Below are positions 270 through 63,334 of a DNA stretch of 64,000 nucleotides, piece by piece. This DNA is from Eledone cirrhosa (Eukaryota): positions 59,334,001 through 59,398,000 of the forward strand of contig OZ024743.1 in assembly GCA_964016885.1 (NCBI GenBank), read 5' to 3'. Position 1 is the stretch's first letter. Each line of letters begins with the position of its first letter. A program made the translations under genes and the position numbers. The notes below the pieces were generated by a model. It was not told the origin of the DNA. It did not search any database and saw only the letters and a program-made list of their open reading frames with translations.

Positions 270-1840
270 GACAACAAAGACACCTGCTTGGCAAAAGAGT
301 ACCGACCCATTGCATGCCAGAACCTGATGTATAAGATGTATACAGCCTGCCTGAACCTATTCCTCCAAGATTTACTGTGAAAATAATAACATCATAACAG
401 ATGAACAATCAGCTGGAAAGAAAGGGGTTTGGGGATGTGCTGAACAACTCCTAATCAACAAAACTGCGATGTCGGAGGTGCGACAACATAGGAGGAATAT
501 GGCTACATTCTGGGGGGACGACAGGAAACCTTTCGATTCTGTTCCACACTCTTGGATAATAGAGGCCCTCCAACTTGCTAAAGTCCCAGGCATTATTGTC
601 AGAGCCATAGAGAGGCTGTCTTCTTCTTGGGCCACTATCTTACGGTTAAAGACAGAGAGGGAGGACTCTATTTTCACTGATAAAATAAAATATTGCAGGG
701 GTATATTTCAGGGGGACAGTCTCGCTGTGATATTATTCATCTTGTTATTAAACCCCTTGTCCTTTCTGCTCAAGAAATGTGAGAGATACATCATTGGCTC
801 ACAGAAGGACAGAAATACGAACCTAACCCATAATTTATTTGTGGACGATCTGAAACTCTATGCCAAGAACATGGATGGGATGAAGAAAAATCTTGACCTG
901 GTTACAACGTTCTCAAAGGATGTAGGAATGGAGTTTGGCCAAAATAAATGCTCATACATGACTGTAAAGCGGAAAAAAACAACAATCCAATCTAGCAACA
1001 TTGTCATCAATGGCCTAACTGTTTCACCGATATCTGATGAGGACTGCTACAGATACCTGCAGATAGATGAGAACATACCCTATAATGGTATCTGTAATAA
1101 AGAACGCGTAACCAGGGAATACTACACCCGATTAAGAGAGATCTGGTGATCAGGACTCTCTGCGCAAAACAAAACAGTGGCTCACAATGTGTTTGCTGAG
1201 CCTGTCCTAACACCAACGTATGGAATACTCAATTGGACGATAGACGAAATCCGAGCAGTTAATGTTGGAACTCGAAAAATACTAAACAACACCGGAAACT
1301 TCCACATCAACAGTAACATAGACCGCCTTTACTTGAAACGTAAGCAGGGAGGTATAGGCCTAACATCAGTCCGGACAACATTTGAATATCGCATCATATC
1401 TTTCCGACAACATCTACGAACCTCGAAGCGTAGGAGCCAGTTTCTCGAGCAAGTCTATCTGCATGAAACAGATAAGATCATGAGAGTTGGGAAGGAAACC
1501 CTCGAGAGATATTCCCTGTGTGATAATCAAAAACTTACACCCAGGGATGTCGCTCAGCAGTATCGCAGTGAATCCATGGATGAAAAACTGCATACTTATC
1601 AGCAAAAAATCATGTATGGATATGTTGCCAGGAAGCTCCAGAGTCAGAGTAATATAGATAAGGAAAGTAGTCTATCTTGGACCAACAACCGCTATATTGG
1701 CTCCCACTTTGAAGGATACGCTTTTGCAATCCAAGAACAGGAGATTAACACGAAATACCTGATTCACAAAAGAGATAGGGATGCAGGCAAAACACCTAGT
1801 TGTGATAACAAGTGCAGACTCTGCAGAACTAACATCGAGG
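270..1840 (+). pseudogene. R4/Dong-like non-LTR retrotransposon remnant (RT, thumb, start of CCHC finger)
   Basis: Motifs EYRPIACQNLMYK, GCAEQLLINK, GIFQGDSL, LFVDDLKLY, QEQEINTKY and CRLC. ORFs 469-1149 and 1177-1929 are in one frame split by a TGA at 1147-1149. Homology stops at ~1840. Confidence 0.85.
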
Positions 1841-9843: not shown

Positions 9844-10005
<162 letters not shown>

Positions 10006-10111
10006 GCATGCCAATTCTAACACATATATATCCTAGAAACGATCGTTAAATAATGAACTTTTTTTGTTTAATATAAGGAACTGTTTCATTGTTTTATTCA
10101 TTATCTTTTTA

Positions 10112-10186
<75 letters not shown>

Positions 10187-10195
10187 GTATATGTA

Positions 10196-10421
<226 letters not shown>

Positions 10422-10438
10422 TATGTATATATATATAT

Positions 10439-10525
<87 letters not shown>

Positions 10526-10527
<2 letters not shown>

Positions 10528-10637
10528 AACCAGTAAGACCCCGACAGCTGAGCTCAAGCCGTTTCGACGGCTAATTCTGGACTAAATGAAAATTTATCCT
10601 GGTATTTAAATAGCCGAACTTCTCAAGGGGTAATTCC
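10526..10637 (-). ncRNA. HHR of PLE family 2 (inverted arm)
   Basis: Reverse complement of 14399-14510. Confidence 0.7.
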
Positions 10638-11746
10638 ATATATGGTCAAAGTGATTGTCAAAAATCAGTAGTAATTCTGTGGTTGCAAATTAGTAGGGGA
10701 GATGGTGGCTAAACCTGCCAGTAGGAGAAAGAGGGGAGGGGGTGGAGTAGACCCAATCAAGCGTTGGTAGTGCCAGCTACAGCTGGGCATGAGGTCAAAG
10801 AAGATACAGGGGAGGGGGAGGGGGAGGAAGTCGGAACGGTAGGTAGAACAATGGGGGGTAGAAATATATAGGAAAGAAACAATACTGAGATTGAAGAAAA
10901 GCATATAAGTGTAAAGAAAAAAGTAGAGTAAATTAAATTCTACGACCTAGGTCTCTAGCTATTGTTAGGCTAGAATAAATAAATAAAGAAAGAAAGAAAG
11001 AAGTAAAGAAAGAAATAAAGAAATAACGAAATAAGTAAAAGAACTAGGTGGGACGTAATAGGCAAGGACCCTTTTAAGAGGTATAAGTACGTAAATGATA
11101 CGGTGACGGTTCAACAAAAGGGGCCAAAATACTAAAGAGACTACCACGAAATAAACAATAAAGGTTTCCATCCCGGGTACAATGCCAGCAACCACCCAGT
11201 GCAGCAAAGTGAACTAGTACGAGATAATAATTCTGAGTCCCGAGAAAAATATATACTAATGCTAACTCTAAAAGATCTAAAACAAGCTACATGAAAGTTC
11301 GTACGAAGTAAAGGTAGAATACGGAAAAATAAATTCAGAATCCACCCCGCCCAAAAGAAAAGCGAAGAAAGAAATACTGAAACGAAAAAATAAGGCATAA
11401 GTGCCACTAAGAAATATAGAGGGCACAGAGAATAGTGGGAGCGGTCGAAAAAAGGGTACAATTATCCGGGGTCTAAACCAACTGCTATAAAGGGCGGAGT
11501 CCGCCAAATCTATCATAGACTAGGGGAGGGGGTGGGGGTACTAAGGCTACAAGGGGCCAAAGGGCAGCCTCGGGTGGGCGAGAAAAGACGCCGACAAAGG
11601 AGAAGAGCTGGGGTAGAAGGACTAAGGAGAGAGGGGGGAAGGAAATAAAGGAAGCGATAAAAGAATACAAAGAAGATCTTACGTCTCCCTTGGCAAGCAG
11701 GGGTTACCCATTGCAAAATCGGCAAGTGGGGTGTTATAGCCCTAGT

Positions 11747-12995
11747 CTACACCCCCGGGTCATTATGGGGTTTGAGGGCGAGGTAAGTCCTACGCAATCT
11801 ATGTTTACATGCAGTAACCAGTTCATCTTTCTTGTTTAGGAGTTGGTCCGTCGAAAACAGCATTTGTAAAGTTTCCTCCGAGCATAAATTGCACGGACGG
11901 CGTCCTCCCGTGTAAGAATTGGCTCTGGACAGTAATCTCCAAGTGAGATCATAGGTGATGTTGTTGTCCTTGAGGTCCCATATGTGGCCCGAAAGTGTAG
12001 TGGCGTGACGCCGGGCCGGGTTTCGGAAGCTATGTCTATGTTGGTATAGCCGGGTCTTGAAGTCACATGCGGTAAGTCCTATATAGGCTTTGTTGGAGGT
12101 ATCCGTCCTCACGTTGCACTGGTAGATCACATTACGGTCTCTGCATCTATTGTCGAATGGGCAAATAGATCTATCCGGGCAGTTACACCTCCTGGTCGGT
12201 TCTCCACTGCTATTTAGGTTATTTCTGCCATCGGGGTTGAGTTTTTTGTTGTTAGAGGAGACGATGTTTTGTGCGAAGTTTGGTGTAGTGCTGTAAGAGA
12301 GTTTGATGGTATTTTTGTTAATTATGTTGTGGTAGCGGTGTTGCAATGGGAAGTGTTTTTCAATGAGCCTAAAGAATAGTTTCCCGATGGGAGTTGTCAC
12401 CTCTGCGTTGTGGGGAGGATTGAACCATGTTACATTGCGTGAGCGGCGGTGTCTCCTGCTGGTTCCGCTAATGGGAGCTGGACAGTAGGATATTTCCTCC
12501 CGGAAACCACTCCGCTTGAGGGCCTGGTTGTAATAAGGCGCATGTTCATCGAATATCCGCTCATTAGCTGACAAACGGGATGTGCGGAGGGAGATGTTTT
12601 TGACCAGGTTGTTTGTGATGTTCCTAGGATGGTTTGATCAGCGGTGGATGTAGTGCAGATTGTCATTAGGTTTCCTGTATGGGTAGTACAGGTCGTTTTC
12701 GAGGTCGAGGGTCACGTCCAGGAAGTTTACTCGGGTCAGGGACGTTTGTAGGGTTATTTTAAATCCCCAGTCGCGGAAGAATCTGATTAATTGTTTCCGG
12801 ACCCGATCTGTACTACTGGGGTTGTACCCTTTAAGGGTAAGGAGCCCATCATCACGGTACAATCCACCACCGAATGCAGGAAACATATCAGTGAGTTTGG
12901 CTATTAGGAATAATCCTATAAGATCTGTGACCTCCGCCGAATCCGTGGCGCCCATGCTGACGTCGAAGGGTGAGTCGGGAGCTCTTTTTATACCT
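11747..12995 (-). pseudogene. PLE RT C-terminal half plus GIY-YIG, frameshift near 12635
   Basis: FDVSMG, GLYRDDGL, FLDVTL, WFNPP, CNC....CPFDNRC, VIYQC...AYIGLT, CNLC. Confidence 0.9.
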
Positions 12996-14398
12996 TCCGA
13001 AACCCGGCCCGGCGTCACACCACTACACTTTCGGGCCACATATGGGACCTCAAGGACAACAACATCACCTATGATCTCACTTGGAGATTACTGTCCAGAG
13101 CCAATTCTTACACGGGAGGACGCCGTCCGTGCAATTTATGCTCGGAGAAAACTTTACAAATGCTGTTTTCGACGGACCAACTCCTAAACAAGAAAGATGA
13201 ACTGGTTACTGCATGTAAACATAGATTGCGTAGGACTTACCTCGCCCTCAAACCCCATAATGACCCGGGGGGGGGGGGGGGTAGACTAGGGCTATAACAC
13301 CCCACTTGCCGATTTTGCAATGGGTAACCCCTGCTTGCCAAGGGAGACGTAAGATCTTCTTTGTATTCTTTTATCGCTTCCTTTATTTCCTTCCCCCCTC
13401 TCTCCTTAGTCCTTCTACCCCAGCTCTTCTCCTTTGTCGGCGTCTTTTCTCGCCCACCCAAGGCTGCCCTTTGGCCCCTTGTAGCCTTAGTACCCCCACC
13501 CCTCCCCTAGTCTATGATAGATTTGGCGGACTCCGCCCTTTATAGCAGTTGGTTTAAACCCCGGATACTTGTCCCCTTTTTCCGACCGCTCCCACTATTT
13601 TCTGTGCCCTCTATATTTCTTAGTGGCACTTATGCCTTATTTTTCGTTTCAGTATTTCTTTCTTCGCTTTTCTTTTGGGCGGGGGTGGATTCTGAATTTA
13701 TTTTTCCGTATTCTACCTTTACTTCGTACGAACTTTCATGTAGCTTGTTTTAGATCTTTTAGAGTTAGCATTAGTATATATTTTTCTCGGGACTCAGAAT
13801 TATTATCTCGTACTAGTTCACTTTGCTGCACTGGGTGGTTGCTGGCATTGTGCCCGGTATGGAAACATTTATTGTTTATTTCGTGGTAGTCTCTTTAGTA
13901 TTTTGGCCCCTTTTGTTGACCCGTTACCGTATCATTTACGTACTTATACCTCTTAAAAGGGTCCTTGCCTATTACGTCCCACCTAGTTCTTTTACTTATT
14001 TCCTTATTTCTTTATTTCTTTCTTTACTTCTTTCTTTCTTTCTTTCTTTATTTATTTATTTATTCTAGCCTAACAATAGCTAGAGACCTAGGTCGTAGAA
14101 TTTAATTTACTTTACTTTTTTCTTTACACTTATTTGCTTTTCTTCACTCTCAGTATTTTTTCTTTCCTATATATTTCTACCCCCATTGTTCTACCTACAG
14201 TTCCGACTTCCCCCCCCTCCCCCTCCCCTGTATCTTCTTTGACCTCATGCCCAGCTGTAGCTGGCACTACCAACGCTTGATTGGGTCTACTCCACCCCTC
14301 CCCTCTTTCTCCTACTGGCAGGTTTAGCCACCATCTCCCCTACTAATTTGCAACCACAGAATTACTACTGATTTTTGACAATCACTTTGACCATATAT

Positions 14399-14510
14399 GG
14401 AATTACCCCTTGAGAAGTTCGGCTATTTAAATACCAGGATAAATTTTCATTTAGTCCAGAATTAGCCGTCGAAACGGCTTGAGCTCAGCTGTCGGGGTCT
14501 TACTGGTTCC
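14399..14510 (+). ncRNA. Type I HHR with U3-A8 core and long stem II
   Basis: acccc TTGAGAA g..cggcta(loop)tagccgtc GAAA cggct-tgagctc-agct GTC ggggt; predicted cleavage after C14493. Confidence 0.72.
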
Positions 14511-14605
14511 TATTACCCACTCTACTACCTCAAGTATTGAGTACTTTGGTGCGTTATGGTCCACCTGGTTCCTTACCACACTTCCTTCGTTATATATATA
14601 TATAT

Positions 14606-15698
<1,093 letters not shown>

Positions 15699-15711
15699 AT
15701 ATGTATACAGT

Positions 15712-15975
15712 GGAGGCACGTGGCCTAGTGGTATGAGTGTTCGACTTACGATCATAATGTCGTGGGTTGGATTCCTGGGTTGCGTGTTGTGTTCTTGAGC
15801 AAAACACTTCATTTCATTATACCCAGTTGAAAATGAGTAGCAGCAATAGCTGGAGGTTTAAACCTGCGATGGACTGGCGTCCTCTCCAGGGGAGATTCTT
15901 GTACTCTCAGTCGCTTTACGCCATGAAACCAGGATAAGCACCAGCCAAATGAGCTTTCTGGCTTAAGTCAGAATT
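15712..15975 (+). mobile_element. tRNA-derived SINE, second family
   Basis: A-box tggcctagtgg, B-box-like ggttggattcc, and a tgtgttcttgagcaaaacactt central domain; related copy at ~40312-40430. Confidence 0.75.
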
Positions 15976-15995
15976 TAGACTTCAGATAAGATATG

Positions 15996-16028
<33 letters not shown>

Positions 16029-16051
16029 GATAAGTATATATATATATATGA

Positions 16052-16125
<74 letters not shown>

Positions 16126-16127
<2 letters not shown>

Positions 16128-16311
16128 CGAAGGAACTGTGGTAAGGAACCAGGTGGACCATAACGCACCAAAGTACTCAATACTTAAGGTAGTAGAGTGG
16201 GTAATAGGAACCAGTAAGACCCCGACAGCTGAGCTCAAGCCGTTTCGACTGCTAATTCTGAATTAGCCGTCGAAACGGCTTGAGCTCAGCTGTCGGGGTC
16301 TTACTGGTTCC

Positions 16312-16312
<1 letters not shown>
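16126..16312. mobile_element. Tiny fold-back insertion of the PLE family 2 3' end
   Basis: Matches 14459-14592 inverted, followed by 14459-14513 direct; inside (TA)n. Confidence 0.85.
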
Positions 16313-16344
<32 letters not shown>

Positions 16345-16600
16345 GTAAATATATAAATATATATATATATATAAATGGAATAGAATGAATATATATGGTT
16401 CCTATATATTACTGGTTCCTATATATATATATATATATATATATGTAAATATATAAATATATATATATATATGAATGGAATAGAATGAAACGAAATTTCA
16501 TTTCTCACTCTTAAACGGCACTTACTTAAATGTAAGTATGTATGTATACGTACATATATATATGTATACAGACGTACAGCAACATGTATATGTATATATA

Positions 16601-16636
<36 letters not shown>

Positions 16637-16781
16637 GCACACATATATATATGTACTTATCAGTTTACCGAACTTTATTATAATGTTCGCTTTGTTCGTT
16701 TGTAAACAAACGGACAACCTGATTTACGCCGTACAGTGTTCAGGCAACCACGTCACCTTTTTGTTCAACACTGACACAGGA

Positions 16782-16824
16782 ACGATGTACTAGTTTCATG
16801 CTTGTTAGCTATCGTCAGCACCGT
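16782..16824 (-). ncRNA. Retrozyme HHR copy 1
   Basis: acggtg CTGACGA tagctaacaagcat GAAAC ta GTA catcgt. Confidence 0.8.
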
Positions 16825-17058
16825 ATACCTTTCTGCCAGATGGTTGAACGTCCGAAAGTATATACTTTCCTTATGAATATAAACGGCTGAGCAGCCTAAT
16901 TTTCATATCGAGTGAGTTCAGTCGGCCAGGCGCACCGAAAACGATAAATGGAATAGAATAAAACGAAATTTCATTTATCACACTTAGTACGGCACTTACT
17001 TAAATGTAAGTATGTATGTATACGTACATACATATATGTATACAGACGTACAGTGGCA

Positions 17059-17176
<118 letters not shown>

Positions 17177-17329
17177 CATACAGGCACACACATATATATG
17201 CACGTATCAGTTTACCGAACATTTATTATAATGTTCGCTTTGTTCGTTTGTAAACAAACGGACAGCCTGATTTACGCCGTACAGTGTTCAAGCAACCACG
17301 TCACCTTTTTGTTTAACACTGACACAAGA

Positions 17330-17372
17330 ACGATGTACTAGTTTCAAGCTTGTTAGCTATCGTCAGCACCGT
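17330..17372 (-). ncRNA. Retrozyme HHR copy 2
   Basis: acggtg CTGACGA t-agc-taacaa-gct-t GAAAC ta GTA catcgt. Confidence 0.85.
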
Positions 17373-17606
17373 ATACCTTTCTGCCAGATGGTTGAACGTC
17401 CGAAAGTATATACTTTCCTTATGAAAATTAACGGCTGAGCAGCCTAATTTGCATATCGAGTGAGTTCAGTCGGCCAGGCGCACCGACAACGATAAATGGA
17501 ATAGAATGAAACGAAATTTCATTTCTCACATTAAGTACGGCACATACTTAAATGTAAGTATGTATGTATACGTACATGCATATATGTATACAGACGTACA
17601 GTAGCA

Positions 17607-17733
<127 letters not shown>

Positions 17734-17910
17734 TATATATATATATATATATTTATACATACAGGCACACACATATATATGCACGTATCAGTTTACCGAA
17801 CATTTATTATAATGTTCGCTTTGTTCGATTGTAAACAAACGGACAGCCTAGTTTACGCCGTACAGTGTTCAGGCAACCACGTCACCTTTTTGTTCAACAC
17901 TGACACAGGA

Positions 17911-17953
17911 ACGATGTACTAGTTTCATGCTTGTTAGCTATCGTCAGCACCGT
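17911..17953 (-). ncRNA. Retrozyme HHR copy 3
   Basis: Same motif as copy 1. Confidence 0.8.
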
Positions 17954-18362
17954 ACACCTTTCTGCCAGATGGTTGAACGTCCGAAAGTATATACTTTCCT
18001 TATGAACATAAACGGCTGCGCAGCCTAATTTTCATATCGAGTGAGTTCAGTCGGCCAGGCGCACCGATAACGATGAATGGAATAGAATGAAACGAAATTT
18101 CATTTATCACACTTAGTACGGCACTTACTTAAATGTAAGTATGTATGTATACGTACATACATATATGTATACAGACGTACAGTAGCATGCATATATATAT
18201 ATATTTATACATACAGGCACACATATATATATGCACGTATCAGTTTACCGAACATTTATTATAATGTTCGCTTTGTTCGTTTGTAAACAAACGGACAGCC
18301 TGATTTACGCCGTACAGTGTTCAGGCAACCACGTCACCTTTTTGTTCAACACTGACACAGGA

Positions 18363-18405
18363 ACGATGTACTAGTTTCAAGCTTGTTAGCTATCGTCATC
18401 ACCGT
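18363..18405 (-). ncRNA. Retrozyme HHR copy 4 (C3 mutated)
   Basis: Core reads ATGACGA; the rest is intact. Confidence 0.6.
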
Positions 18406-18666
18406 ATAACTTTCTGCCAGATGGATGAACGTCCGAAAGTATATACTTTCCTTATGAAAATTAACGGCGGAGCAGCCTAATTTGCATAACGAGTGAGTTC
18501 AGTCGGCCAGGCGCACCCAAAACGATAAATAGAATAGAATGAAACGAAATTTCATTTCTCACTCTAAGTACGGCACTTACTTAAATGTAAGTATGTATGT
18601 ATACGTACATACATTTATGTATAGAGACGTACAGTAGCATGCGTATATATATATATATACATGTAT

Positions 18667-18709
18667 ACGGTGCTGACGATAGCTAACAAGCTTGAAACTA
18701 GTACATCGT
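18667..18709 (+). ncRNA. Retrozyme HHR copy 5
   Basis: acggtg CTGACGA tagctaacaagctt GAAAC ta GTA catcgt. Confidence 0.85.
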
Positions 18710-18885
18710 TCCTGTGTCAGTGTTGAACAAAAGGGTGACGTGGTTGACTGAACACTGTACAGCGTAAATCAGGCTGTCCGTTTGTTTACAAACGAACATA
18801 GCGAACATTATAATAAATGTTCGGTAAACTGATACGTGCATATATATATGTGTGCCTGTATGTATATATATATATGTATATATAT

Positions 18886-18928
18886 ACGGTGCTGACGATA
18901 GCTGACAAGCTTGAAACTAGTACATCGT
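18886..18928 (+). ncRNA. Retrozyme HHR copy 6
   Basis: Intact core and stems; one change in loop II. Confidence 0.85.
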
Positions 18929-19335
18929 TCTCGTGTCAGCGTTGAACAAAAGGGTGACGTGGTTGCCTGAACACTGTACGGCGTAAATCAGGCTGTCCGT
19001 TCGTTTACAAACGTACAAAGCGAACATTATAATAAATGTTCGGTAAACTGATACGTACATATATATATGTGTGCCTGTATGCATATATATATATATATGC
19101 ATGCTACTGTACGTCTGTATACATATATGTATGTACGTATACATACATACTTACATTTAAGTAAGTGCCGTTCTAAGAGTAAGAAATGAAATTTCGTATC
19201 ATTCTATTCCATTTATCGTTTTCGGTGCACCTGGCCGACTGAACTCACTCGATATGCAAATTAGGCTGCTCAGCCTTTAATTTTCATACGGAAAGTATAC
19301 ACTTTCGGACGTTCAACCATCTGGCAGAAAGGTAT

Positions 19336-19378
19336 ACTGTGCTGACGATAGCTAACAAGCTTGAAACTAGTACATCGT
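19336..19378 (+). ncRNA. Retrozyme HHR copy 7
   Basis: Intact core; one stem I mismatch. Confidence 0.8.
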
Positions 19379-19531
19379 TCCTGTGTCAGTGTTGAACAGA
19401 AAGGTGACGTGGCTGACTGAACACTGTACGGCGTAAATCAGGCTGTCCGTTTGTTTACAAACGAACAAAGCGAACTTATAATAAATGTTCGGTAAACTGA
19501 TACGTGCATATATATATGTGTACCTGTATGC

Positions 19532-19596
<65 letters not shown>

Positions 19597-19830
19597 TGCT
19601 ACTGTACGTATGTATACATATATGTATGTACGTATACATACATACTTACATTTAAGTAAGTGCCGTACTAAGAGTGAGAAATGAAATTTCGTTTCATTCC
19701 ATTCCTTTTATCGTTTTCGGTGCGCCTGGCATACTGAACTCACTCGATATGCAAATTAGGCTGCTCAGCCGTTAATTTTCATGAGGAAAGTATATACTTT
19801 CGGACGTGCAATCATCTAGCAGAAAGGTAT

Positions 19831-19873
19831 ACGGTGCTTACGATAGCTAACAAGCTTGAAACTAGTACATCGT
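19831..19873 (+). ncRNA. Retrozyme HHR copy 8 (G5 mutated)
   Basis: Core reads CTTACGA. Confidence 0.6.
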
Positions 19874-20026
19874 TCCTGTGTCAGTGTTGAACAAAAAGGT
19901 GACGTGGTTGCCTGAACACTGTACGGCGTAAATCAGTCTGTCCATTTGTTTACAAACGTACAAAGCGAACATTATAATAAATGTTCGGTAGACTGATACG
20001 TGCTTATATATATGTATGCCTGTATG

Positions 20027-20104
<78 letters not shown>

Positions 20105-20213
20105 TGCTACTGTACGACTGTATACATATATGTATGTACGTATACATGCATACTTACATTTAAGTAAGTGCCGTACTAAGAGTGAGAAATGAAATTTAGT
20201 TTCATTCTATTCC

Positions 20214-20286
<73 letters not shown>

Positions 20287-20762
20287 AAAGAGTACTTCAT
20301 ATTTACAGGAAAGCAAATAGATGTATATAAATGATTTTCAGAAAGTAAAATATATGGATAAGTTTGTGTTCGTCTAATTAGTTAAGATTACAAGACAGGT
20401 TGATTTCAAAGAGGGAAAATATGATTAATACAGCTTTCTACAAACGGGAATTGAATGTGTGTGTGTGTATGTATACACAGAAATATATATATATATATAT
20501 ATAAACGGAAAAATGAAACGAAATTTCATTTCTCCCTCTTAGTACGGCTGTTACTGAAATATAAGTATGTATACGTACATACATATATGTATACAGAGGT
20601 ACACTAGTATGTATATATACATACATGCACACATATATATGTACGTATGGATTCACCGAACATTTATGATAAAGCTCGGTGTGTTTGTAAACAAACATCC
20701 CGAATTAAGCAGTACAGTGTCTAGCAACCATCGTTGCTCATTTGTTCAACACTGACAAAGGA

Positions 20763-20805
20763 ACGCTGTACTAGTTTCAAGCTTATTAGTTATCGTCAGC
20801 AACGT
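20763..20805 (-). ncRNA. Retrozyme subfamily B HHR
   Basis: acgttg CTGACGA taactaataagctt GAAAC ta GTA cagcgt; stem I pairing is kept through a double change relative to subfamily A. Confidence 0.8.
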
Positions 20806-21003
20806 ATACCTTCCTGCCACATGATTGAACGTCTGAAAGTATATATTTTCCTTATGCATATTAACGGCTGAGCTGTCTAATTTGCATATCGAGTGAGTTA
20901 ATCGGCCGCGGTATCGAAAACGATAAACGGAAAAAATGAAACGAAATTTCATTTCTCACTCTTAGTAAGGCTGTTACTTAAACATAAGTATGTATACGTA
21001 CAT

Positions 21004-21438
21004 GGTGGCTGCCAACTCGTTTTCGAGTACGGCCACTACTTTATATCCATGTAGGAGAACCCCTACCGATACGCTGAACGAGTGTGACTTTTGAGTCCAG
21101 CCAGCGACTTGAAAACTCTGGTACAAAGACTACACTTGTGACAATTATTGACACATAGTGCTGGGCCCATGGTACCATGTGACGACAAGTGCAGAGAGAT
21201 CTCCAGATATAAAGCAATGCCTGTGCCATGAAGCTTTTATAGTGAGCAAAGGCACTGCACAAAGCCAGTCCCACTCTCTTAACCAAGATGATATTTACCA
21301 AAAAGAAGAACAAGTCAACATCATTGGATACCATCAGGGTTGCAGGTGTTATATCAGAGTTTTCCTTCTCCTAGAATTCTGCCTTGACAAAGGCTAAGGG
21401 GTCATCTCTCCCGGTGATTTTGGATGGCCATTGACTCT
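21004..21438 (-). mobile_element. Non-autonomous RTE-like derivative
   Basis: Target duplication tatacgtacat; encodes CSLCTRVFKSLAGLKSH (RTE-type terminal zinc finger); similar to 34400-34740. Confidence 0.7.
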
Positions 21439-21814
21439 TATACGTACATACATATATGTATACAGACGTACAGTAGTATGTATATATATATACATACATG
21501 CACACATATATATATATGTACGTATGGATTCACCGAACATTTATTATAATGCTCGGTATGATTGTAAACAAACATCCTGAATTAAGCCGTACAGTGTCTA
21601 GCAGTTCCTTTGTCAGTGTTGAACATATGAGCAACGATGGTTGCTAGACACTGTACGGCTTAATTCGGGATGTTTGTTTACAAACACACCGAGCATTATA
21701 ATAAATGCTCGGTGAAGCCATTCGTACATATATGTGTGCATGCATGTATATATATATATATATATACATACTAACTTACGTCTGTATACATATATGTGTG
21801 TACGTATACATACT

Positions 21815-21901
<87 letters not shown>

Positions 21902-36944: not shown

Positions 36945-38163
36945 TTAGTATCATAGATAAGAGACAGTTTAATATGTATATTTTATAACAGCATTCCTTT
37001 ATACGTATATATATACATACATAAGCATGTTATTTACAGTGGTATAAAAAAAGTATAATTGTTTCTACTTTTGGCACAAGGCCAGCAATTATTCCAGTAC
37101 ATTACTGGTAATTTATTATATATAATATATCTAATACGACATTCCTCTCTCTTTCTTACTCTGTCTTTTTAGATAGATACATAGCTATAACTTCGCGCGC
37201 TTAAAATATCTGTCTGAATGTCTACCTGTCGGCATTGACTTCGCTTCTAACAAAATTTTAATTAATTATATATATAATTATATATTCGTGTACATATTTT
37301 AAACAATAATACTATACTATATATTTTCAACAGTAATACTATACTATATGCTTTCAACAGTAATACTATACTACACATTTTCAACAGTAATACTGTACTA
37401 TATATTTTCAACAGTAACACTATACTATATATTTTCAACAGTAATACTGTACTGTACTATATATTTTCAACAGTAATACTATAGTATACTATATATTTTC
37501 AACGGTAATACTATACTATGTATTTTCAACAGTAATACTGTACTATATATTTTCAATAGTAATAATATACTATGTATTTTCAACAGTAATACTATAATAT
37601 AGTATATATTTTCAACAGTAATAGTGTACTACATATTTCCAACAGTAATACTGTATTATACAATATATTTTCAACAGTAGTACTGTACTATACTATATAT
37701 TTTCAACAGTAATACTATACTACACTATATGTTTTCAACAGTAATATTATACTATATATTTTTGAACAGTAATACTATATATTTTCAACAGTAATACTAT
37801 ACTATACTATATATTTTCAACAGTAATACTATACTATATATTTTCAACAGTAATACTATACTATATATTTTCAAAAGTAATACTGTACTATATATTTTCA
37901 ACAGTAATACTATACTATATATTTTCAACAGTACTACTGTACTGTACTATATATTTTCCACAGTAATACTATACTATATATTTTCAACAGTAATACTGTA
38001 GTGTACTATATATTTTCAACAGTAATACTATATATTTTCAAGAGTAATACTATACTATATATTTTCAACAGTAATACTATACTGTATATTCTCATCAGTA
38101 ATACTATATTACACAGACGGCTTATCGTCTGTTTATCCAAGCGAAGCTAGGTACGTCAGCTGG
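36525..38163 (+). mobile_element. Probable non-autonomous Helitron containing a minisatellite
   Basis: 5' aataataaagctga...aaacggctggacc and 3' ccaagcgaagctagg hairpin then cagCTGG resemble decayed Helitron termini. Confidence 0.5.
37308..38110 (+). repeat. Minisatellite, 20-30 bp unit tatattttcaacagtaatac(tatac)n, roughly 30 copies
   Basis: Directly visible tandem repeat with a variable 5-mer. Confidence 0.95.
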
Positions 38164-49025: not shown

Positions 49026-49098
<73 letters not shown>

Positions 49099-49139
49099 AA
49101 GAACACAAGAGCGTCTACAACGTCAACAGATTTTTATTG

Positions 49140-49184
49140 GCTTACAATGTTTCTTCCTTACGTAAACGTAGGATTCGTCAGAGC
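49140..49184 (-). ncRNA. Type I HHR (left arm)
   Basis: gct CTGACGA a-tcctacg-ttta-cgtaagga-a GAAAC att GTA agc. Confidence 0.72.
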
Positions 49185-51635
49185 TATAAAAGGGGTTTGA
49201 TTGGTGTTATGGACTCTACCAACCAAACATTCAAGAACAAAGAGTAAAGAGAGTAAAGAGCAAAAAGTAGGGGACGATAAGTCTAATTTTGGTGCAGGAG
49301 GGTGGGGTGTGGTTCCTTGTTTACTAGCTGCGGTCATATTCATTCCCGGGAGTCGGCTGGTTAGGTGAACCATAGATGGGGTGGCGTCGATAGTATGGTG
49401 CAGAGGGTGCGCAGAGGCTACACAAACACAAAGGGCGTACCATATATATATAGCGGAGGAGAAAGTACATGAGGTAATTAGAAAGGGAAAAAGAGTAATA
49501 ATAATAATCTATAATTAATAGTGTATAATAAGGCATGGGGAAGATTACACTATAATAAGGTATAAAAGTAATAATAAGGTAAAATATAAAGGAGGATAAA
49601 AGGATAAAAGGATATGATCAAGTGTGATTAGTTGAGAGAATATAAGATGATAATAGTTATGTCAAGTTTATACATCTTAATAATAGATAATTTGTGTATC
49701 AGAGTTGTAGAACCTTCAATTCACTTACGGGTTCAAGCCACGTGGCATGGTCCATTGTTTATTTGTGCGGTCATGTGCGTTTGTTTTTGACACCATAGCA
49801 GATGCACAAGTTTGTAAATTCCAATGCAGATAGAAATCTATTTTTGCTCACCCGGACATTGACGGAGGATCCAATATTCCTAGTTCAATATGTGTTTGGT
49901 ATTATTTTGGTCGCACAAATCAATCAATTGGTTCAATATATGGAGTATGGTTTTCTGGTCTTCGTAACAGTGTCAGTGGTTGTAGGACCAGAACACCATT
50001 CTCCGCAATAAGAGAGCGAAATGCGCTTGCCGGACTATTGATGACCATAACATCACATTCCAAGGTAATGGCAAAACACAGTGAATGCTATGCACGACCA
50101 GAACACCACAGCATGCATATCCGAGCAACACAGATATAATATCAATAGGGGAATCAACTGAATTTTTTGAGTTGAAATACATATGGATATGTGTCTGTGT
50201 GTATCGGACACATGTACACATAAAGAAGCTGTTGACCTAAATATACCTGTCATACCTGTCTGAATTCCTAAGGGAATTGTCGGCCAGTTACTGTCTTGAC
50301 CGATTGTAGTACCACTGGGTGAATCATTTGAGTTTTTTGAGTTGAAATACATATAAATATGTGTCTGTGTGTGTCGGACACATGTACACATAAAGAAGCT
50401 GCCGACCTAAATATGCCTGTCATGCCTGCCTGAATTTTCGGTCAGTTGCTGACTTGACCGATTAACCCCACAATTACTACGTAGCGCTCCTTGCACGTGA
50501 CTGCTGGACCCGGATGAAACGAAGACGAAGAATTTCCTTGCGTACCGTTTTGTACCACAGATGCGATCTCACCCTGCTTCGTTAATGTCCTATCGACACC
50601 AAAGTTCAACGTTCGGGCGAATAGATTTGAATCCAACCACCAACAACATAGCTGGATGACCGATAATCACACCAAACCGGAGTACTGTGATCCTTGTGAT
50701 TTCCAGATATACAACCACTGACACTGTTACGAAGACCAGAAAACCATACTCCATATATTGAACCAATTGATTGATTTGTGCGACCAAAATAACACCAAAC
50801 ACATATTGAACTAGGAATATTGGATCCTCCGTCAATGTCCGGGTGAGCAAAAATAGATTTCTATCTGCATTGGAATTTACAAACTTGTGCATCTGCTGTG
50901 GTGTCAAAAACAAACGCACATGACCGCACAAATAAACAATGGACCATGCCACGTGGCTTGAACCCGTAAGTGAATTGAAGGTTCTGCAACTCTGATACAC
51001 AGATTATCTATTATTAAGATGTATAAACTTGACATAACTATTATCATCTTATATTCTCTCAACTAATCACACTTGATCATATTTCTCTATCCCGTTTTCT
51101 CCCCCCATAATTATTATATTTTTATTATTATTTGAAAAAAATCGGTTTTTTTACATTGTGTTTTCCCCTCCAAATATTCGCTTATATTTCTTTATATATT
51201 CTCTATATATTTTTTTTATCTTTATTATTTCCACTTTTATCCTCCTTTATATTTTACCTTATTATTTCTTTTATACCTTACCCCATGCCTTATTATACAC
51301 TATTAATTATAGATTATTATTATTACTCTTTTTCCATTTCTAATTACATCATGTACTTTCTCCTGCGCTATATATATATGGTACGCCCTTTGTGTTTGTG
51401 TAGCCTCTGCGCACCCTCTGCACCATACTATCGACGCCACCCCATCTATGGTTCAGCTAACCAGCCGACTCCCGGGAATGAATATGACCGCAGCTAGTAA
51501 ACACGGACCCACACCCCACCCTCCCGCACCAAAGTTAGACTTATCGTCCCCTACTTTTGCTCTTTACTCTCTTTACTCTTTGTTCTTGAATGTTTGGTTG
51601 GTAGAGTCCATAACACCAATCAAACCCCTTTTATA

Positions 51636-51680
51636 GCTCTGACGAATCCTACGGTTACGTAAGGAAGAAACATTGTAAGC
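51636..51680 (+). ncRNA. Type I HHR (right arm)
   Basis: gct CTGACGA a-tcctacg-gtta-cgtaagga-a GAAAC att GTA agc. Confidence 0.72.
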
Positions 51681-51827
51681 CAATAAAAATCTTTTGATGT
51701 TGTAGACGCTCTTGTGTTCTTTTTCATATATACGGCTCTGCTCCAAAGCATAGAGCTAGTTATTATGCTGCCAATACCTTAATGGGACACGGGTATACAA
51801 TACCTAACTCCTATTAACCTAGGTATT

Positions 51828-51932
<105 letters not shown>

Positions 51933-52599: not shown

Positions 52600-52943
52600 A
52601 CAGACGACCAAACAGACGCATACTGCCACACACTTAAACAGGCATGTACAATAAAATCCAATTTAAAGGGAGACTACTCTTTATCCACCTAACCTTAACT
52701 CTTTGACATTAGAGATAGAACAGATACTCTATACCATTTCCTGTCAGCATGACTTGGCAAGCTATTTAGAACACTGGTTTAACCGCTTTACTTCCCTCCG
52801 AAGAAGAGATATTATCTCGAAAATTAAGGATATTTAAATAAATCTAAGGTAAAAGACTAATTGTCAACACTATCTTTTGCATTTGCATTCTTTATTCTAT
52901 GTCCATACCTGCATTGTTTTGGCTTTATTATACATATACAAAC

Positions 52944-52950
<7 letters not shown>
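52600..52950 (+). mobile_element. Another PLE family 4 3' UTR copy with HHR at 52795-52829
   Basis: Matches 41225-41550 inverted; cct CCGAAGA a gagat-att-atctc GAAAA TTA agg. Confidence 0.75.
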
Positions 52951-53294: not shown

Positions 53295-53541
53295 ATCCGT
53301 AACACTGATAATGTCGCAGATGTGCAACGAAAGAACTTTGATAGGCTGTATATATATATATATATATATTTATATCGGTATTTTTAACCGTTGGTCAATC
53401 AATGATAAACATTGATTGCCAAATAAATAAATTAACTATGGAGATATAAAATATACAGAAGCGAAAACCAACCAAACAGTGAGTGTGTTCTGTTATTATT
53501 TATGCCAATATTATTACAACAATATGACATTCCCCAAGTAT

Positions 53542-53550
<9 letters not shown>
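53295..53550 (+). mobile_element. Diverged relative of the Neptune-like pLTR
   Basis: HHR-like core, hairpin, gaagcgaaaaccaaccaaacagtgagtgtgttctg and ATG ACA TTC CCC AAG match 63020-63275. Confidence 0.75.
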
Positions 53551-53574: not shown

Positions 53575-53741
53575 ACGAAGGAAATGTAGTAAGGAACCAG
53601 GTGGACCATAACGCACCAAAGTACTCAATACTAAGGGTAGTAGAGTGGGTAATAGGAACGAGTAGGACCCCGACGGCTGACCTCAAGAATTAGCCGTCGA
53701 AACGGCTTGAGCTCAGCCGTCGGGGTCCTACTCGTTCCTAT
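53574..53741. mobile_element. Tiny fold-back insertion of the PLE family 2 3' end
   Basis: Same architecture as 16126-16312. Confidence 0.85.
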
Positions 53742-54624: not shown

Positions 54625-54835
54625 ATATTTATTAAAATAACAGATTAAAGTTTAAGCAAAGAATCGCTGCTTTCACCCTTAACGGGATCTTAAGGGTGAA
54701 AGCATCGATTCTTTGCTTAAACTTTAATCTGTTATTTTAATAAATATTTGCTCTACGGTTCTTATATATTTGATATATATTTATCCTTATCGAGCCCTCT
54801 TTGGATTTTAGTCTTCAAATTTATTATTATTACTA
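54625..54835. mobile_element. Tiny fold-back insertion of the PLE family 1 3' end
   Basis: Matches 5722-5875; the inversion point lies in HHR stem II (~54690). Confidence 0.85.
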
Positions 54836-55431
54836 TATATATATATATATAGCGGCGATGAATTAGTTTTGCGAGGTTTTTTATATAAAATCGTGTGTCG
54901 AAACAGATATTGTTATATTTGGGGAGGGTCATATTTGCGTAATATTGCCAGAATTAATAACAGAACACACTCACTGTTTGGTTGGTTTTCGCTTCTCGCT
55001 GTCTTTTATATATATATATTTGCGATCTAACTTACTCGGTCCTCAATGTTGCCATTGACTGACCGGCGGTCAAAAATAATACAGATACAATATAGACACA
55101 AACACATATATATAGTTTACACAATTTACATAAATCTTTCGTTGCGCATCTGCAACATCGTCAGTGGTGTTATATTCATTGTTCCTCCTGTTGTGTTGTA
55201 TGTCTACGCCATTTTTTTGTTCAGTCTGTCTATATATTTATTTATTTATTTGCTTGTTTGTTTATCTTATTTTATTTTGTCTTCTTTGCGCATGCGTTTG
55301 CGTGTGTGTATAGTGTTATGTGTGATGTGTGACTAGTGTGTATAGTGTTGTGTCTGCTGGGTGACTAGTGTGTGTTTATGTGCTTGTGTATGTATTTATT
55401 TATCTTATTTTATTTAATTTTATTTACTTAT

Positions 55432-58400
55432 TTATACTTCTCTTAGGTCAGTGTTGTTTGTTTGGGTGTTGTTGTTGTTCCACTCATTCTTTCTGTTTAG
55501 CTTTGGTCTTCTAATTTCTATTTCACTGGCCTCTCTGATTTGCCTATCTGCTGGGTCATTCCTATGTTTAGATATTATTCTAATTTCTATGTTGTCTATG
55601 TTACCGTCATGTTGTTGTCTAGCATGTTCGTATAGTACTGACCCGTTTTTTCGTCCTTTTAGTTCCCCCCAGTGTTGGTCTATCCTTTCACCTATGCTAC
55701 GAGCTGTCTCACCTATGTATGTTGTTGTCATGTTTCTGCAAGTACCCTCTTTACATCTTATGCTATAGACTACGTTTCTAGTTTTACAGTTTATCCGGGG
55801 GTTCACCTTACATATGATACATTTCCTATTGGTACAGTGGGTTTTCTTAAAAGGGTAGGTTTTGCTGATCAGGGATTTTATGGTGGTTCCTGGCTTTTCT
55901 ACCACCTTTATTTTTAAGTGGGTCTTTCTCAGGGCCTTTCTACACTGGTTAGCTAATTTCCCTCCAGGGGTGGCGTCCACAAACATGACATTCTGATATC
56001 TCTGGTTGTCGTACCATGATGTGGCCTTCCCTATCTTATGTCTAGCCCTATCTAAGCTATTCCATGATTTGCTCCTGTATAGTGGGCAAATTCCTTTCAT
56101 GTCCAGTTCTATGAGGGTCTTATACTTTTCCATGGCTCCTTCGTATACTCTGACTCTGTCTCTTTGGTTGTAGCCAGAGAACTGCATGCGGTTGATGAAG
56201 TGTTGGATGTGTCCTTCCATTTCTGTTGGGTCGCACATGCTTGACACATTCTTCCTCACTCGTACCAAATCTGCGATCAGAATATTAAACTTAGCACTAC
56301 TGGACATTGCTGAGTTTTTGAGTATCAGGTATTTGGAGGCCATGGGTTTAGCATAGTGTGAGTGGAGAATTTGGGCTCTCTCGTCTATAGTGTTAATCCA
56401 GAGTTCTGTGTCTAATACAGGTAGTCTATTGTTAGGGTGTTTGGAAGGGAAGTCTATAGTTACAGTTAAACTCTGGTGTATGGAATTAGCTATCTGCTGG
56501 ATGCTTTCCATCGTGCTACGTTCTAAATCAAACTTGTTAGTGCTCTCTATTGGGGGTGTTCTTATAACTATATTGATATCGTCTACATAACGAGAGTACA
56601 TGATGAGGTCTATGGAGCTTTCATTAAGGAGACCTTTAAGTCTCCTTTCCCACCATACCATGAAAAGGTTGGCAACATCACCAGCTATGCTGACGCCGAT
56701 GGCTGCTCCCTCATTTTGGGTGTAGATTTTCTCATTGAACTTAAATATGTGGCCCTTTAGGGTAGTTTTGATACTAGCCCCTATTGCATGTGCGACCATT
56801 TTTCTTACCTGATCAGTGTTTTGGGGGGTCCGTATAGCTTTGGTCCACCCAATCCACCTTCCTATGGGGGTCTTTTTAGCCATTGAGGTTATGGTGGGGG
56901 GTCTACCTCTTATAGGTCTACTAGGGCAGAAACATCTAAGGTCATGGCTGTCTAGGTAGTCAGTGTCGTAGGTAAGTCTAAGTAGGAGGCCCAGTTCGTC
57001 TGTGTCGACGTCGCAGAACTCCACCTCACTCTCAATGATCATCTCCACACATCTTTTCACAGCAAAATCAATGTTAATGGATGGGTACAGTGACACCACA
57101 TCCATGCTGCCTATTATGCAGTTGGATAGGCTCCTGTTTTTGTTGCACTCACTGATTCTGCTGAGGAGGTCCTCTGTACTTTCACATACATCTGGGGACA
57201 TCTTGATTATGGGGCGTATAACCATTGAGAGGAAGTAGGAGATCCTGTAGTTGCTAGCTATATTAGCTCCGCATACGGGTCTTGTTGGTGGTCCTGTTGC
57301 CGGGTCGTCGACTGTCTTGTGGTCTTTGCGGAGCCCATACAAGGGTGGTATGCCATTGTTAGACGCCTGGAAGTTGTTGGCAGTGCGTCTGCTTGGCTTT
57401 ACGATGTCAGTCCACATCATCATGTGAGCGTTGAGGATTTTTTCTCTCCCATCGTGTGTTAGTTGTGCAACTTCGCTCGTGTTGGTGATGTGGGGTTGCA
57501 TTGCCTCGATGTAGTTCGGCATGCTATCTATTGACATCCTACCAGACTTATCTGTGGGTAGACACACTACCTCACCATCCCTTGTGCGCTGCTTGAGGCT
57601 AACCAAGCCTTCTACAGGTTTTATCCCAAGTTGTTGGGCCTCTGGTCTGCTCTGTCTCATAGTGTACCTGTCTACTACTTGTCTAATCTTATTTCTAGCT
57701 ATGGTGAACTGTGCCTCCGTCTCGTCATCTATTTGCTGTGGTATGCAAACTCTTTTATTAAAGGGTAACCTCGTAGGATAGATATTACCCATCTTATATG
57801 TTTTGTCAGCTGGGTTGAAAAATAGTTTCTCTAATGGGTTGTCGTTATTTCTATCGTCATAGTTGTGTGTGTTGCTATTATTGTTATCATGGTGGTTGTT
57901 GTTGTTTCTATCATTAGCATTAATATTATTATTGTTATGATTGCTAGATGTATTGTTGTTTACTTCACCGTTATTGTTGTTGTTGTTACTGCTATTTCTA
58001 CCATTGTGGTTGTTACTATTAATATGTTTCTTGTTTTTGTTGATGTTGCTACATGTACTATTTCCATTATTACCACTGTGGTTATTGTTGTTGTTGTTGT
58101 TCGTATTGTTACCGTTATTACTACTGTGGTCACTGTTGCTGTGTCTGTGGTTAACGTTTCTATTATTATTATTATTGTGGTTGTTGTTGTTCTGTCTATC
58201 GCTAGTATTATTGCCATTATCACTATTTCTCACTTTCCTGCCATTGTTATGGTTATGGCTGTTATTTCTATACCCAGAGTTATTGTTTATATTACTACTA
58301 CCGTTATTATTGTTGTTGTTGTTTACCTTTGCATTCCAACGTATTTTTGTGAAACACTTTTCCAGCTCCGTTTTGCATTCCATAGGGTTAATCTTTTTGT

Positions 58401-58671
58401 AGATGGCAAATTTTGGTGGTAACTTTAGGATTTGTTGTTCTTGTTCACTGATTAAAGTGTTCCCATAGATATTTACTGTGTGGTCATTGGTAAATTCTTC
58501 CGGTAGTTTTACATCACTCATACGGATGTTGTCGATGTTATCTGGGTATTTTTGAGAATATTCGATTTTCCTTTCTTGTAGTTTTTTCTTATTCATCCAT
58601 TCTAATTTCTTCTTGAAATGCCTACAGCATTCGTTTTGAGCATATTTCGTTTCGCGTCGGATGACGCTCAT
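55432..58671 (-). CDS. PLE polyprotein: Asn-rich insert, reverse transcriptase, Cys-rich linker, GIY-YIG endonuclease
   Basis: PTDKSG, LYGLRKDHK, RPVC, GSMDVVSLYPSI, QNEGAAIG, RYVDD, LPVLD, CxxxxCxxC linker, VVYSIRC...YIGETAR, REA.EI....P.LN; 1079 aa open. Confidence 0.93.
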   Translation of the reverse strand: MSVIRRETKYAQNECCRHFKKKLEWMNKKKLQERKIEYSQKYPDNIDNIRMSDVKLPEEFTNDHTVNIYGNTLISEQEQQILKLPPKFAIYKKINPMECKTELEKCFTKIRWNAKVNNNNNNNGSSNINNNSGYRNNSHNHNNGRKVRNSDNGNNTSDRQNNNNHNNNNNRNVNHRHSNSDHSSNNGNNTNNNNNNNHSGNNGNSTCSNINKNKKHINSNNHNGRNSSNNNNNNGEVNNNTSSNHNNNNINANDRNNNNHHDNNNSNTHNYDDRNNDNPLEKLFFNPADKTYKMGNIYPTRLPFNKRVCIPQQIDDETEAQFTIARNKIRQVVDRYTMRQSRPEAQQLGIKPVEGLVSLKQRTRDGEVVCLPTDKSGRMSIDSMPNYIEAMQPHITNTSEVAQLTHDGREKILNAHMMMWTDIVKPSRRTANNFQASNNGIPPLYGLRKDHKTVDDPATGPPTRPVCGANIASNYRISYFLSMVIRPIIKMSPDVCESTEDLLSRISECNKNRSLSNCIIGSMDVVSLYPSINIDFAVKRCVEMIIESEVEFCDVDTDELGLLLRLTYDTDYLDSHDLRCFCPSRPIRGRPPTITSMAKKTPIGRWIGWTKAIRTPQNTDQVRKMVAHAIGASIKTTLKGHIFKFNEKIYTQNEGAAIGVSIAGDVANLFMVWWERRLKGLLNESSIDLIMYSRYVDDINIVIRTPPIESTNKFDLERSTMESIQQIANSIHQSLTVTIDFPSKHPNNRLPVLDTELWINTIDERAQILHSHYAKPMASKYLILKNSAMSSSAKFNILIADLVRVRKNVSSMCDPTEMEGHIQHFINRMQFSGYNQRDRVRVYEGAMEKYKTLIELDMKGICPLYRSKSWNSLDRARHKIGKATSWYDNQRYQNVMFVDATPGGKLANQCRKALRKTHLKIKVVEKPGTTIKSLISKTYPFKKTHCTNRKCIICKVNPRINCKTRNVVYSIRCKEGTCRNMTTTYIGETARSIGERIDQHWGELKGRKNGSVLYEHARQQHDGNIDNIEIRIISKHRNDPADRQIREASEIEIRRPKLNRKNEWNNNNTQTNNTDLREV

Positions 58672-59063
58672 GAAGTCATCTCTCTCGTTTGCTGTGATGA
58701 GATTTCGGATTTCCTTACCGTTGATGCGTTTTTGTCTGTAGAGTGCGTTGACTTTTGTGTATGTTGTGTTTTCATATTAACTGTTATTGTGTGTTTTAGC
58801 CGTTCAGCTTGTGTTTTGTTCAATAATAAATTATTTACTTGTTTTGATATGTTTGTTGTGTATGTTTTGGAGGAAACACAGTGTTTTAAGAAGCGGATTT
58901 GTTCTGTTGTTATTGTAGTTTTTATATAACAGAAAACAGTGTCTTTCAATAACCTTTCAGCTTCGCACAAGCTAATGCCATAGCGGCGATGAATTAGTTT
59001 TGCGAGGTTTTTTATATGAAATCGTGTGTCGAAACAGATATTGTTATATTTGGGGAGGGTCAT
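58668..59063 (-). CDS. N-terminal part of the same PLE ORF, separated by a probable frameshift near 58770
   Basis: Starts right after the pLTR and has a QIRFLKHC motif; the main frame stays open ~38 codons upstream of its ATG. Confidence 0.7.
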   Translation of the reverse strand: MTLPKYNNICFDTRFHIKNLAKLIHRRYGISLCEAERLLKDTVFCYIKTTITTEQIRFLKHCVSSKTYTTNISKQVNNLLLNKTQAERLKHTITVNMKTQHTQKSTHSTDKNASTVRKSEISSQQTREMTS

Positions 59064-59562
59064 ATTTGCGTAATATTGCCAGAATTAATAACAGAACACA
59101 CTCACTGTTTGGTTGGTTTTCGCTTCTCGCTGTCTTTTATATATATATATCTGCGATCTAACTTACTCGGTCCTCAATGTTGCCATTGACTGACCGGCGG
59201 TCAAAAATAATACAGATACAATATAGACACAAACACATATATATAGTTTACATAATTTACATAAATCTTTCGTTGCACATCTGCAACATCGTCAGTGGTG
59301 TTATATTCATTGTTCCTCCTGTTGTGTTGTATGTCTACGCCATTTTTTTGTTCAGTCTGTCTATATATTTATTTATTTATTTGCTTGTTTGTTTATCTTA
59401 TTTTATTGTGTCTTCTTTGCGCATGCGTTTGCGTGTGTGTATAGTGTTATGTGTGATGTGTGACTAGTGTGTATAGTGTTGTGTCTGCTGGGTGACTAGT
59501 GTGTGTTTATGTGCTTGTGTATGTATTTATTTATCTTATTTTATTTAATTTTATTTACTTAT

Positions 59563-62757: not shown

Positions 62758-63017
62758 ATAAGTAAATAAAATTAAATAAAATAAGATAAATAAATACATA
62801 CACAAGCACATAAACACACACTAGTCACCCAGCAGACACAACACTATACACACTAGTCACACATCACACATAACACTATACACACACGCAAACGCATGCG
62901 CAAAGAAGACAAAATAAAATAAGATAAACAAACAAGCAAATAAATAAATAAATATATAGACAGACTGAACAAAAAAATGGCGTAGACATACAACACAACA
63001 GGAGGAACAATGAATAT

Positions 63018-63260: not shown

Positions 63261-63267
63261 CCCTCCC

Positions 63268-63334
<67 letters not shown>

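Follow-up and report, generated by a model that had tools for sequence, protein, structure and literature searches.

The window, which is the whole 64-kb stretch of DNA that was analysed, holds two arrays of a tandem, hammerhead-bearing repeat set among several Penelope-type elements (PLEs). The repeat unit is a non-coding 452-bp monomer (GC 0.38, longest ORF 47 aa) in which comparison with 150 PLE-related proteins revealed no coding remnant, and it holds its own (TA)n tract, which caps a long hairpin. Measured from cleavage site to cleavage site, the units of the first array, array A, are 450, 452, 495, 548, and 581 bp long, the differences arising because the internal TA tracts vary in length, from about 20 to 160 bp; pairwise, the units diverge by 2.6–7.6%. 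Array A consists of two arms of opposite orientation (Table 1), with the strand flip lying between 18662 and 18663, hammerheads on the minus strand to its left and on the plus strand to its right, and the RNA 3' ends pointing outward, just as the original prediction had described for a flip at about 18663.

Table 1. Coordinates of arrays A and B and of their parts, in positions of the window
Feature	Position	Strand	Description
Array A left arm	16472..18662	-	about 4.5 units; 5' end in internal (TA)n tract; long 3' end abutting (TA)n
Array A right arm	18663..20218	+	half unit R1, then units R2, R3, and a partial R4; long 3' end abutting (TA)n
Array A inversion junction	18662..18663	.	non-mirror join; no clear microhomology
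Half unit R1	18663..18883	+	219 nt between cleavage sites; spans hammerhead to internal TA tract; lacks the second half of the unit
Hammerhead R1, type I	18667..18709	+	predicted cleavage after 18703; lacks 5' strand of distal helix I
Hammerhead R2, type I	18886..18928	+	lacks 5' strand of distal helix I
Hammerhead R3, type I	19336..19378	+	extended helix I complete
Hammerhead R4	19831..19873	+	one core substitution
Hammerhead L1	18363..18405	-	one core substitution
Hammerhead L2	17911..17953	-	
Hammerhead L3	17330..17372	-	
Hammerhead L4	16782..16824	-	
(TA)n target left of array A	16421..16471	.	
(TA)n target right of array A	20219..20268	.	
Approximate 'tail'	20160..20218	+	about 59 nt from short-end to long-end register; hairpin kept in both subfamilies
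Array B left arm	20503..21603	-	about 1.5 units; long end on (TA)n; split by later insert
Array B hammerhead	20763..20805	-	one two-sided helix I change relative to array A
Insert in array B	21004..21438	.	435 bp, unrelated; exact 11-bp duplication flanks
Array B inverted right arm	21604..21816	+	starts 4 nt after cleavage register; stops at short end on (TA)n

Each unit of array A carries a predicted type I hammerhead, the core being intact in six of the eight copies, and at least two complete motifs follow one another directly. The motif is made up of a 6-bp proximal helix I with a distal helix, a helix II whose base carries a U-U, and a palindromic helix III of two pairs, and the distal part of helix I adds 8 further pairs, joining columns 8–18 with columns 66–74 according to folds and pair counts. 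In an alignment of nine copies, 91.8% of cells are paired, with one two-sided change, which lies in the sister subfamily; covariation support is weak (49/500 shuffles), and hammerheads folded in isolation were no more stable than shuffles. The same architecture is shared by the canonical metazoan hammerhead type (PMC4209133) and by the axolotl variant hammerhead (PMC7229834), but not by the minimal motifs that occur in families 3 and 4 of the window. Judged from its sequence, the name retrozyme is justified for the unit. An Rfam search returned no hits at the gathering score, and a scan with the family's hammerhead pattern gave no matches in metagenome, viral, or genome contigs. A looser pattern picked out one GC-rich metagenome contig, L001, which was rejected as unrelated beyond the motif; its positions 850–882 (minus strand) hold a hammerhead-core-like string within an inverted-repeat pair. 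The search of sequencing runs listed no RNA run, and its word sharing (0.33–0.39 in the three rows of one study, at most 0.13 in 12 rows) is not evidence.

A sister array, overlooked by the original prediction, lies at 20503–21816. This array B is about 79% identical to array A, with 6.9–10.3% divergence within it, and it is likewise head-to-head, with its junction (21603/21604) outside any TA tract. The start of its plus arm, so close behind the cleavage register, could be a self-cleaved 5' end, though this is a single case. The insert that splits its left arm is a mobile element with an exact target duplication and no second copy in the window.

The inversion might be suspected of being an assembly or library artefact, produced by a fold-back read or by the mis-joining of repeats, as inverted structures of the PLE type are known to trouble assemblies (PMC8557442) and the array A junction is known from the assembly alone. 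The two arms of array A, however, are not copies of each other: their longest exact match is 97 bp and their closest left and right segments differ at 5 of 195 positions. Together with the non-mirror join (mirror identity 0.25 over 200 nt), this makes a fold-back artefact unlikely. The same geometry is moreover found in the second, diverged array and in nine other elements, and array B has been interrupted later by an insert with its own 11-bp duplication, leaving an artefact with hardly any credence. A 12-bp palindrome at the array A junction was considered as evidence and rejected, a palindrome arm of at least 6 being present in 75 of 155 array windows.

The outer ends of the arrays are more telling than the inversion as such. 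Both outer ends of array A, 16472 and 20218, fall at the identical position of the unit (extension difference 0), directly on (TA)n, and the left end of array B has the same long register, so that three long ends share one position, at distances of 316, 351, and 267 nt beyond the final cleavage site. The right end of array B stops about 59 nt earlier, giving a tail of that length, or of 78 nt if the end is placed at the far side of the TA tract. Two fixed 3' registers, with the tail at one end only, are thus seen in array B, the one example on which the short end rests, whereas array A has long ends on both sides, unlike the other 10 head-to-head elements examined. All four outer ends of the two arrays lie on (TA)n and none of the four lies at the cleavage site. 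The window contains 131 TA tracts of at least 10 nt, and 1.1% of its non-tract positions are within 3 nt of one; in a SINE-like family used as a control, 0/18 ends were flush with a TA tract (these BLAST ends being approximate), and among its nine loci one pair is oppositely oriented, 255 bp apart and not abutting. Target-site duplications are unreadable inside (TA)n. Every structural count was made within this 64-kb window and, for the retrozyme, on its two arrays. The fixed ends, the (TA)n flanks, and the geometry, which is seen twice, are direct observations; the fixed internal position of the ends fits internal initiation by a PLE reverse transcriptase (RT) and not priming at a cleaved RNA end. 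The hammerhead does not set the insertion ends.

For comparison, 11 head-to-head elements were picked from the inverted pairs of the window, namely arrays A and B and nine others. In all nine non-array elements, the 3' ends face outward and abut (TA)n on either side; one end is long and the other short, the tails measuring 86, 91, 81, 79, 80, 66, 103, 41, and 166 nt, the last in an unclassified element. It had been claimed that the same geometry and (TA)n context occur in all PLEs here; this is borne out by 9/9 inverted elements, which were preselected and of which six are in families confirmed as PLE by protein, but 'all PLEs' is too strong, since the PLE-type copies at 52618–52947 and 53303–53549 lack an inverted arm directly beside them. 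Relatives of families 1 and 2 contain DKT and CxCx5C, motifs of the Hydra-clade PLEs, which insert into (TA)n (PMC8557442). Family 3 shows RT, CX4CxxC linker, and GIY-YIG-type motifs; its protein has its nearest named relative, at 68% identity, in a predicted protein of Octopus vulgaris, which makes a cephalopod source of this AT-rich animal DNA likely. The endonuclease-containing (EN+) PLEs of the window are of the Hydra clade (families 1 and 2) and of a type with a Neptune/Nematis-type linker (family 3). Family 4 is recognised by a minimal hammerhead only and family 5 by a weak protein match (E 0.03), while the ninth element is unclassified. The likeness to the arrays extends to spacing, the hammerhead standing about 300 nt before the long end in both (312 nt in family 3 and 296–323 nt in arrays whose tracts are short). 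At the inversion junctions, the arrays show 0 nt of overlap and the PLEs 1–2 nt in the four scorable of six, the main family 1 and family 2 elements, for which a longer reference would be needed, being left out.

Several of these insertions are noteworthy in themselves. The region 9888–21830 is a cluster of successive PLE-type insertions into neighbouring (TA)n tracts, comprising a family 2 element, the unclassified element at 14757–15658, a family 2 miniature, and arrays A and B. Miniature head-to-head PLE insertions of 160–210 bp occur at 16127–16312, 53575–53738, and 54629–54834, and are built from nothing but 3' ends, the long one and the short one, of families 2 and 1. Family 4 (49094–51829) is head-to-head as well, with a hammerhead of the minimal type 86 nt before its short end and a tail of 103 nt, and no match to it was found among 150 protein relatives of families 2 and 3. 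The family 3 PLE occupies 54852–63271, its tail overlapping the first codons of an ORF whose N-terminal part contains an asparagine-rich stretch, which recalls the N-rich inserts of Adineta Penelope elements (PMC3846280).

The unit is probably a non-autonomous hammerhead-bearing retroelement, an animal non-LTR retrozyme, that was inserted in trans by an endonuclease-containing PLE. A multimeric or circular transcript of the unit would serve as template, and a PLE protein would bind around the ~59-nt tail and cut both strands of a (TA)n tract. Each cut end would then prime internally on the RNA, in the long or the short register, some 270–350 nt past the cleavage site, and the two cDNAs would extend towards each other through several units until joined at their truncated ends, which would yield head-to-head arms with their 3' ends outward. 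TA-mediated slippage or deletion would later have altered the tract lengths and most likely produced the 219-bp half unit. The cutting and priming steps draw on PLE biochemistry: in vitro, a PLE protein cuts AT-rich DNA on both strands, and two internal initiation sites on the RNA bound the tail, without any need for hammerhead cleavage (PMC11167929). An inverted 5'-truncated copy and an optional tail at one end are typical of PLEs, which also mobilise pLTR-framed DNA in trans (PMC8557442, PMC3846280). The tail region of array A is named here as a candidate PLE recognition and initiation region. The original prediction, which took the inverted array as evidence that PLE machinery mobilises these retrozymes, therefore gains from the second array, the fixed internal 3' end, and the long/short tail. 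The inversion on which it relied is weaker evidence when taken alone, because twin priming on multimeric RNA or a DNA-level fold-back could also give an inversion.

One such possibility is mobilisation of the RNA by a LINE, such as one of the L1-Tx1 or RTE type, with twin priming on a multimeric template as the source of the inversion. Twin priming is known from L1, some LINEs target microsatellites, and LINE priming starts at the RNA 3' end. The 3' end of a self-cleaved RNA is the cleavage site, yet none of the four outer ends is found there; poly(A) is absent, and the pattern of long and short ends is common to the arrays and the PLE copies. LINEs have been named as alternative partners (PMC7229834), and a LINE-like RT remnant is present in the window, but internal initiation by PLEs has been contrasted with LINE priming (PMC11167929), and mobilisation by a LINE appears highly improbable.

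Alternatively, the arrays could have begun as direct tandem repeats, with fold-back or template switching of the DNA at the internal (TA)n hairpins inverting them afterwards; the likeness to PLEs would then be secondary. The left arm of array A does begin inside an internal TA tract, which caps a long hairpin, and the internal tracts vary in length. Exchange between units is also hinted at within this arm (16826–18642, minus strand), where segments two units apart share four variants and differ at 7 of 236 positions, as against 11–18 for other full-length pairs; a dimeric template is the other explanation at which these variants hint. A further observation on this side is a TA-bounded local duplication directly left of array A (16301–16389 and 16409–16489). 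Within 16301–16489, the family 2 short end, a TA tract, and the long end of array A follow one another twice, with 6–15-nt scraps of both ends in between, which may reflect a TA-mediated duplication on the spot, priming that was aborted, or a slip in the assembly. Inversion at the DNA level nevertheless leaves unexplained why the two ends of array A share one register with the long end of array B and why array B has a tail; the array B junction, moreover, lies outside a TA tract, and the joins are not mirror images. Such an origin is thus considered improbable, and insertion by a PLE remains the preferred reading. Points that tell against a PLE are the two long ends of array A, the single example of a short end, the lack of overlap at the array junctions, the unit's want of similarity to the PLE 3' regions of the window and of any coding remnant, and its (TA)n hairpin, which could favour rearrangement of the DNA itself.

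Within the plus arm of array A, a double restart had been offered as part of the same argument, the original prediction stating that the arm restarts twice exactly at the 5' stem of the hammerhead, at 18665 and 18884. There are indeed two starts near the proximal helix I, at 18663 and again at about 18884, 2–4 nt ahead of its six base pairs, but they fall within the helix I region rather than at the start of helix I. The restart position is 41 nt upstream of the predicted cleavage site, and both restarted copies, R1 and R2, have lost the 5' strand of the distal helix I; the restarts are for these reasons not ribozyme-made ends, and hammerhead cleavage was rejected as their cause. In both, a (TA)n tract is joined to TATA. 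Outside the internal tract, a monomer has about six TATA clusters, or seven counting the restart site, so that two independent restarts would coincide in roughly one of 5–7 cases, and coincidence is no remote possibility. Alternatively, a single event may have been duplicated: R1 and R2 share one variant missing from the other six copies, the tract ahead of the second restart has an extra interruption resembling the first junction, and a TA-bounded duplication is also present left of the array. Other shared variants conflict, however, R1 differing from L1 at 5 of 195 positions but from R2 at 10 of 195. The second restart is explained as well by another insertion into that tract, or by a microhomology deletion, as it is by duplication. 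The double restart is not good evidence for PLE mobilisation and is given little weight.

As to which PLE would have acted, the original prediction had singled out family 3, and this was not supported. The unit shows no sequence similarity to any of the seven PLE-type 3' regions of the window, that of family 3 included, since 46–294 of 300 shuffles scored as high, against 0/300 in the sister control; high z-scores obtained between the unit and PLE 3' regions were rejected as artefacts of masked TA runs. The arms of family 3 differ by 0.65%, compared with 1.5–5.8% for those of families 1, 2, 4, and 5 and with the greater divergence between the units of array A, and the family 3 copy looks younger than the arrays. 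Its ORF is frameshifted near 58.75 kb as assembled, with the N-terminus in another frame. Family 3 resembles the arrays only in spacing, that is, in the distance from hammerhead to long end and in a tail of 66 nt; as the mobilising partner, it is possible but unsupported.

A more far-reaching proposal is that the retrozyme, rather than being a reduced pLTR, is an RNA unrelated to it which attracts the PLE protein by mimicking the structure of the tail, the RT then initiating internally and running round a circular or multimeric RNA from both strands of the target. This is rather unlikely, but if it were true, the ~59-nt tail would act as a transferable signal for trans-mobilisation by PLEs, and the arrays would be a direct genomic record of animal retrozyme integration.

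Animal non-LTR retrozymes have been described as tandem units of 150–450 bp (PMC7229834) or 51–972 bp (10.64898/2026.07.22.740005). The unit agrees with those of Cervera and de la Pena 2020 (PMC7229834) in being a non-coding tandem repeat, in its GC content of 38%, and in its co-occurrence with PLEs, and it resembles axolotl HHR_Amex2 in having one type I hammerhead per unit in which helix I has 6 bp, helix II a basal U-U, and helix III is short and palindromic. It differs from the animal retrozymes as there described in that its units measure at least 450 bp, with an internal (TA)n of variable length, and in that its arrays show an inversion and have their outer ends at fixed registers inside the unit. 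The head-to-head arms, the tail at one end, and the (TA)n target are shared with the EN+ PLEs of Craig et al. 2021 (PMC8557442). In contrast to those elements, the unit has no ORF beyond 47 aa, no detectable homology to them, and a hammerhead of canonical rather than minimal type. The closest parallels for a non-coding cargo with PLE-type ends in multiple copies are Chlamydomonas MRC1 and the pLTR-framed DNA of Adineta vaga, non-autonomous systems in which the pLTR is sufficient in trans (PMC8557442, PMC3846280). In those systems, 3' or pLTR sequence is as a rule common to the element and an autonomous family, whereas no such match for the unit is present in the window, and Chlamys elements lack the canonical hammerheads that the unit has (PMC8557442).

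That a PLE might be the mobilising partner of retrozymes was proposed in 2020 (PMC7229834, PMC7761336) and has been reviewed since (PMC11722881). Li, Clavereau and Pollet 2026 (10.64898/2026.07.22.740005) report co-occurrence and, for 24/57 Xenopus families, pLTR homology, with one of nine tested dimers cleaved. Unlike 21 of the Xenopus matches in that preprint, the present unit has no pLTR homologue that could be found within this window. The statement in the original prediction that the link has been proposed but not demonstrated thus holds for the mechanism and overlooks the homology and co-occurrence evidence of that preprint. No analysis of retrozyme inversions or ends was found in the text of the preprint covered here, though its supplements could hold insertion examples. 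Minimal hammerheads lying close together on opposite strands have been noted (PMC4209133); an analysis of retrozyme inversion or tails was not found in the literature covered, which included PMC13282606 and PMC8490949 and had most subscription papers outside its reach. What is new here is a retrozyme family with PLE-type insertion anatomy, seen twice; the overall link to PLEs is already in print. The arrays support, and do not prove, the published idea that PLEs move retrozymes: their weight is limited by their number, two, and by the lack of a sequence match to any PLE of the window, and they do not demonstrate mobilisation. So far, the case for one mobilising enzyme or another has been built on hammerheads in common, on co-occurrence, and on pLTR homology, to which insertion anatomy adds an independent line of evidence. 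The fixed internal ends and the tail point to internal initiation by a PLE, with ribozyme cleavage not defining the inserted ends, and the ~59-nt region provides a defined target for the existing in vitro PLE assay. Elsewhere in the window, positions 37290–38115 are occupied by an AT-rich minisatellite with 27/59-bp periods.
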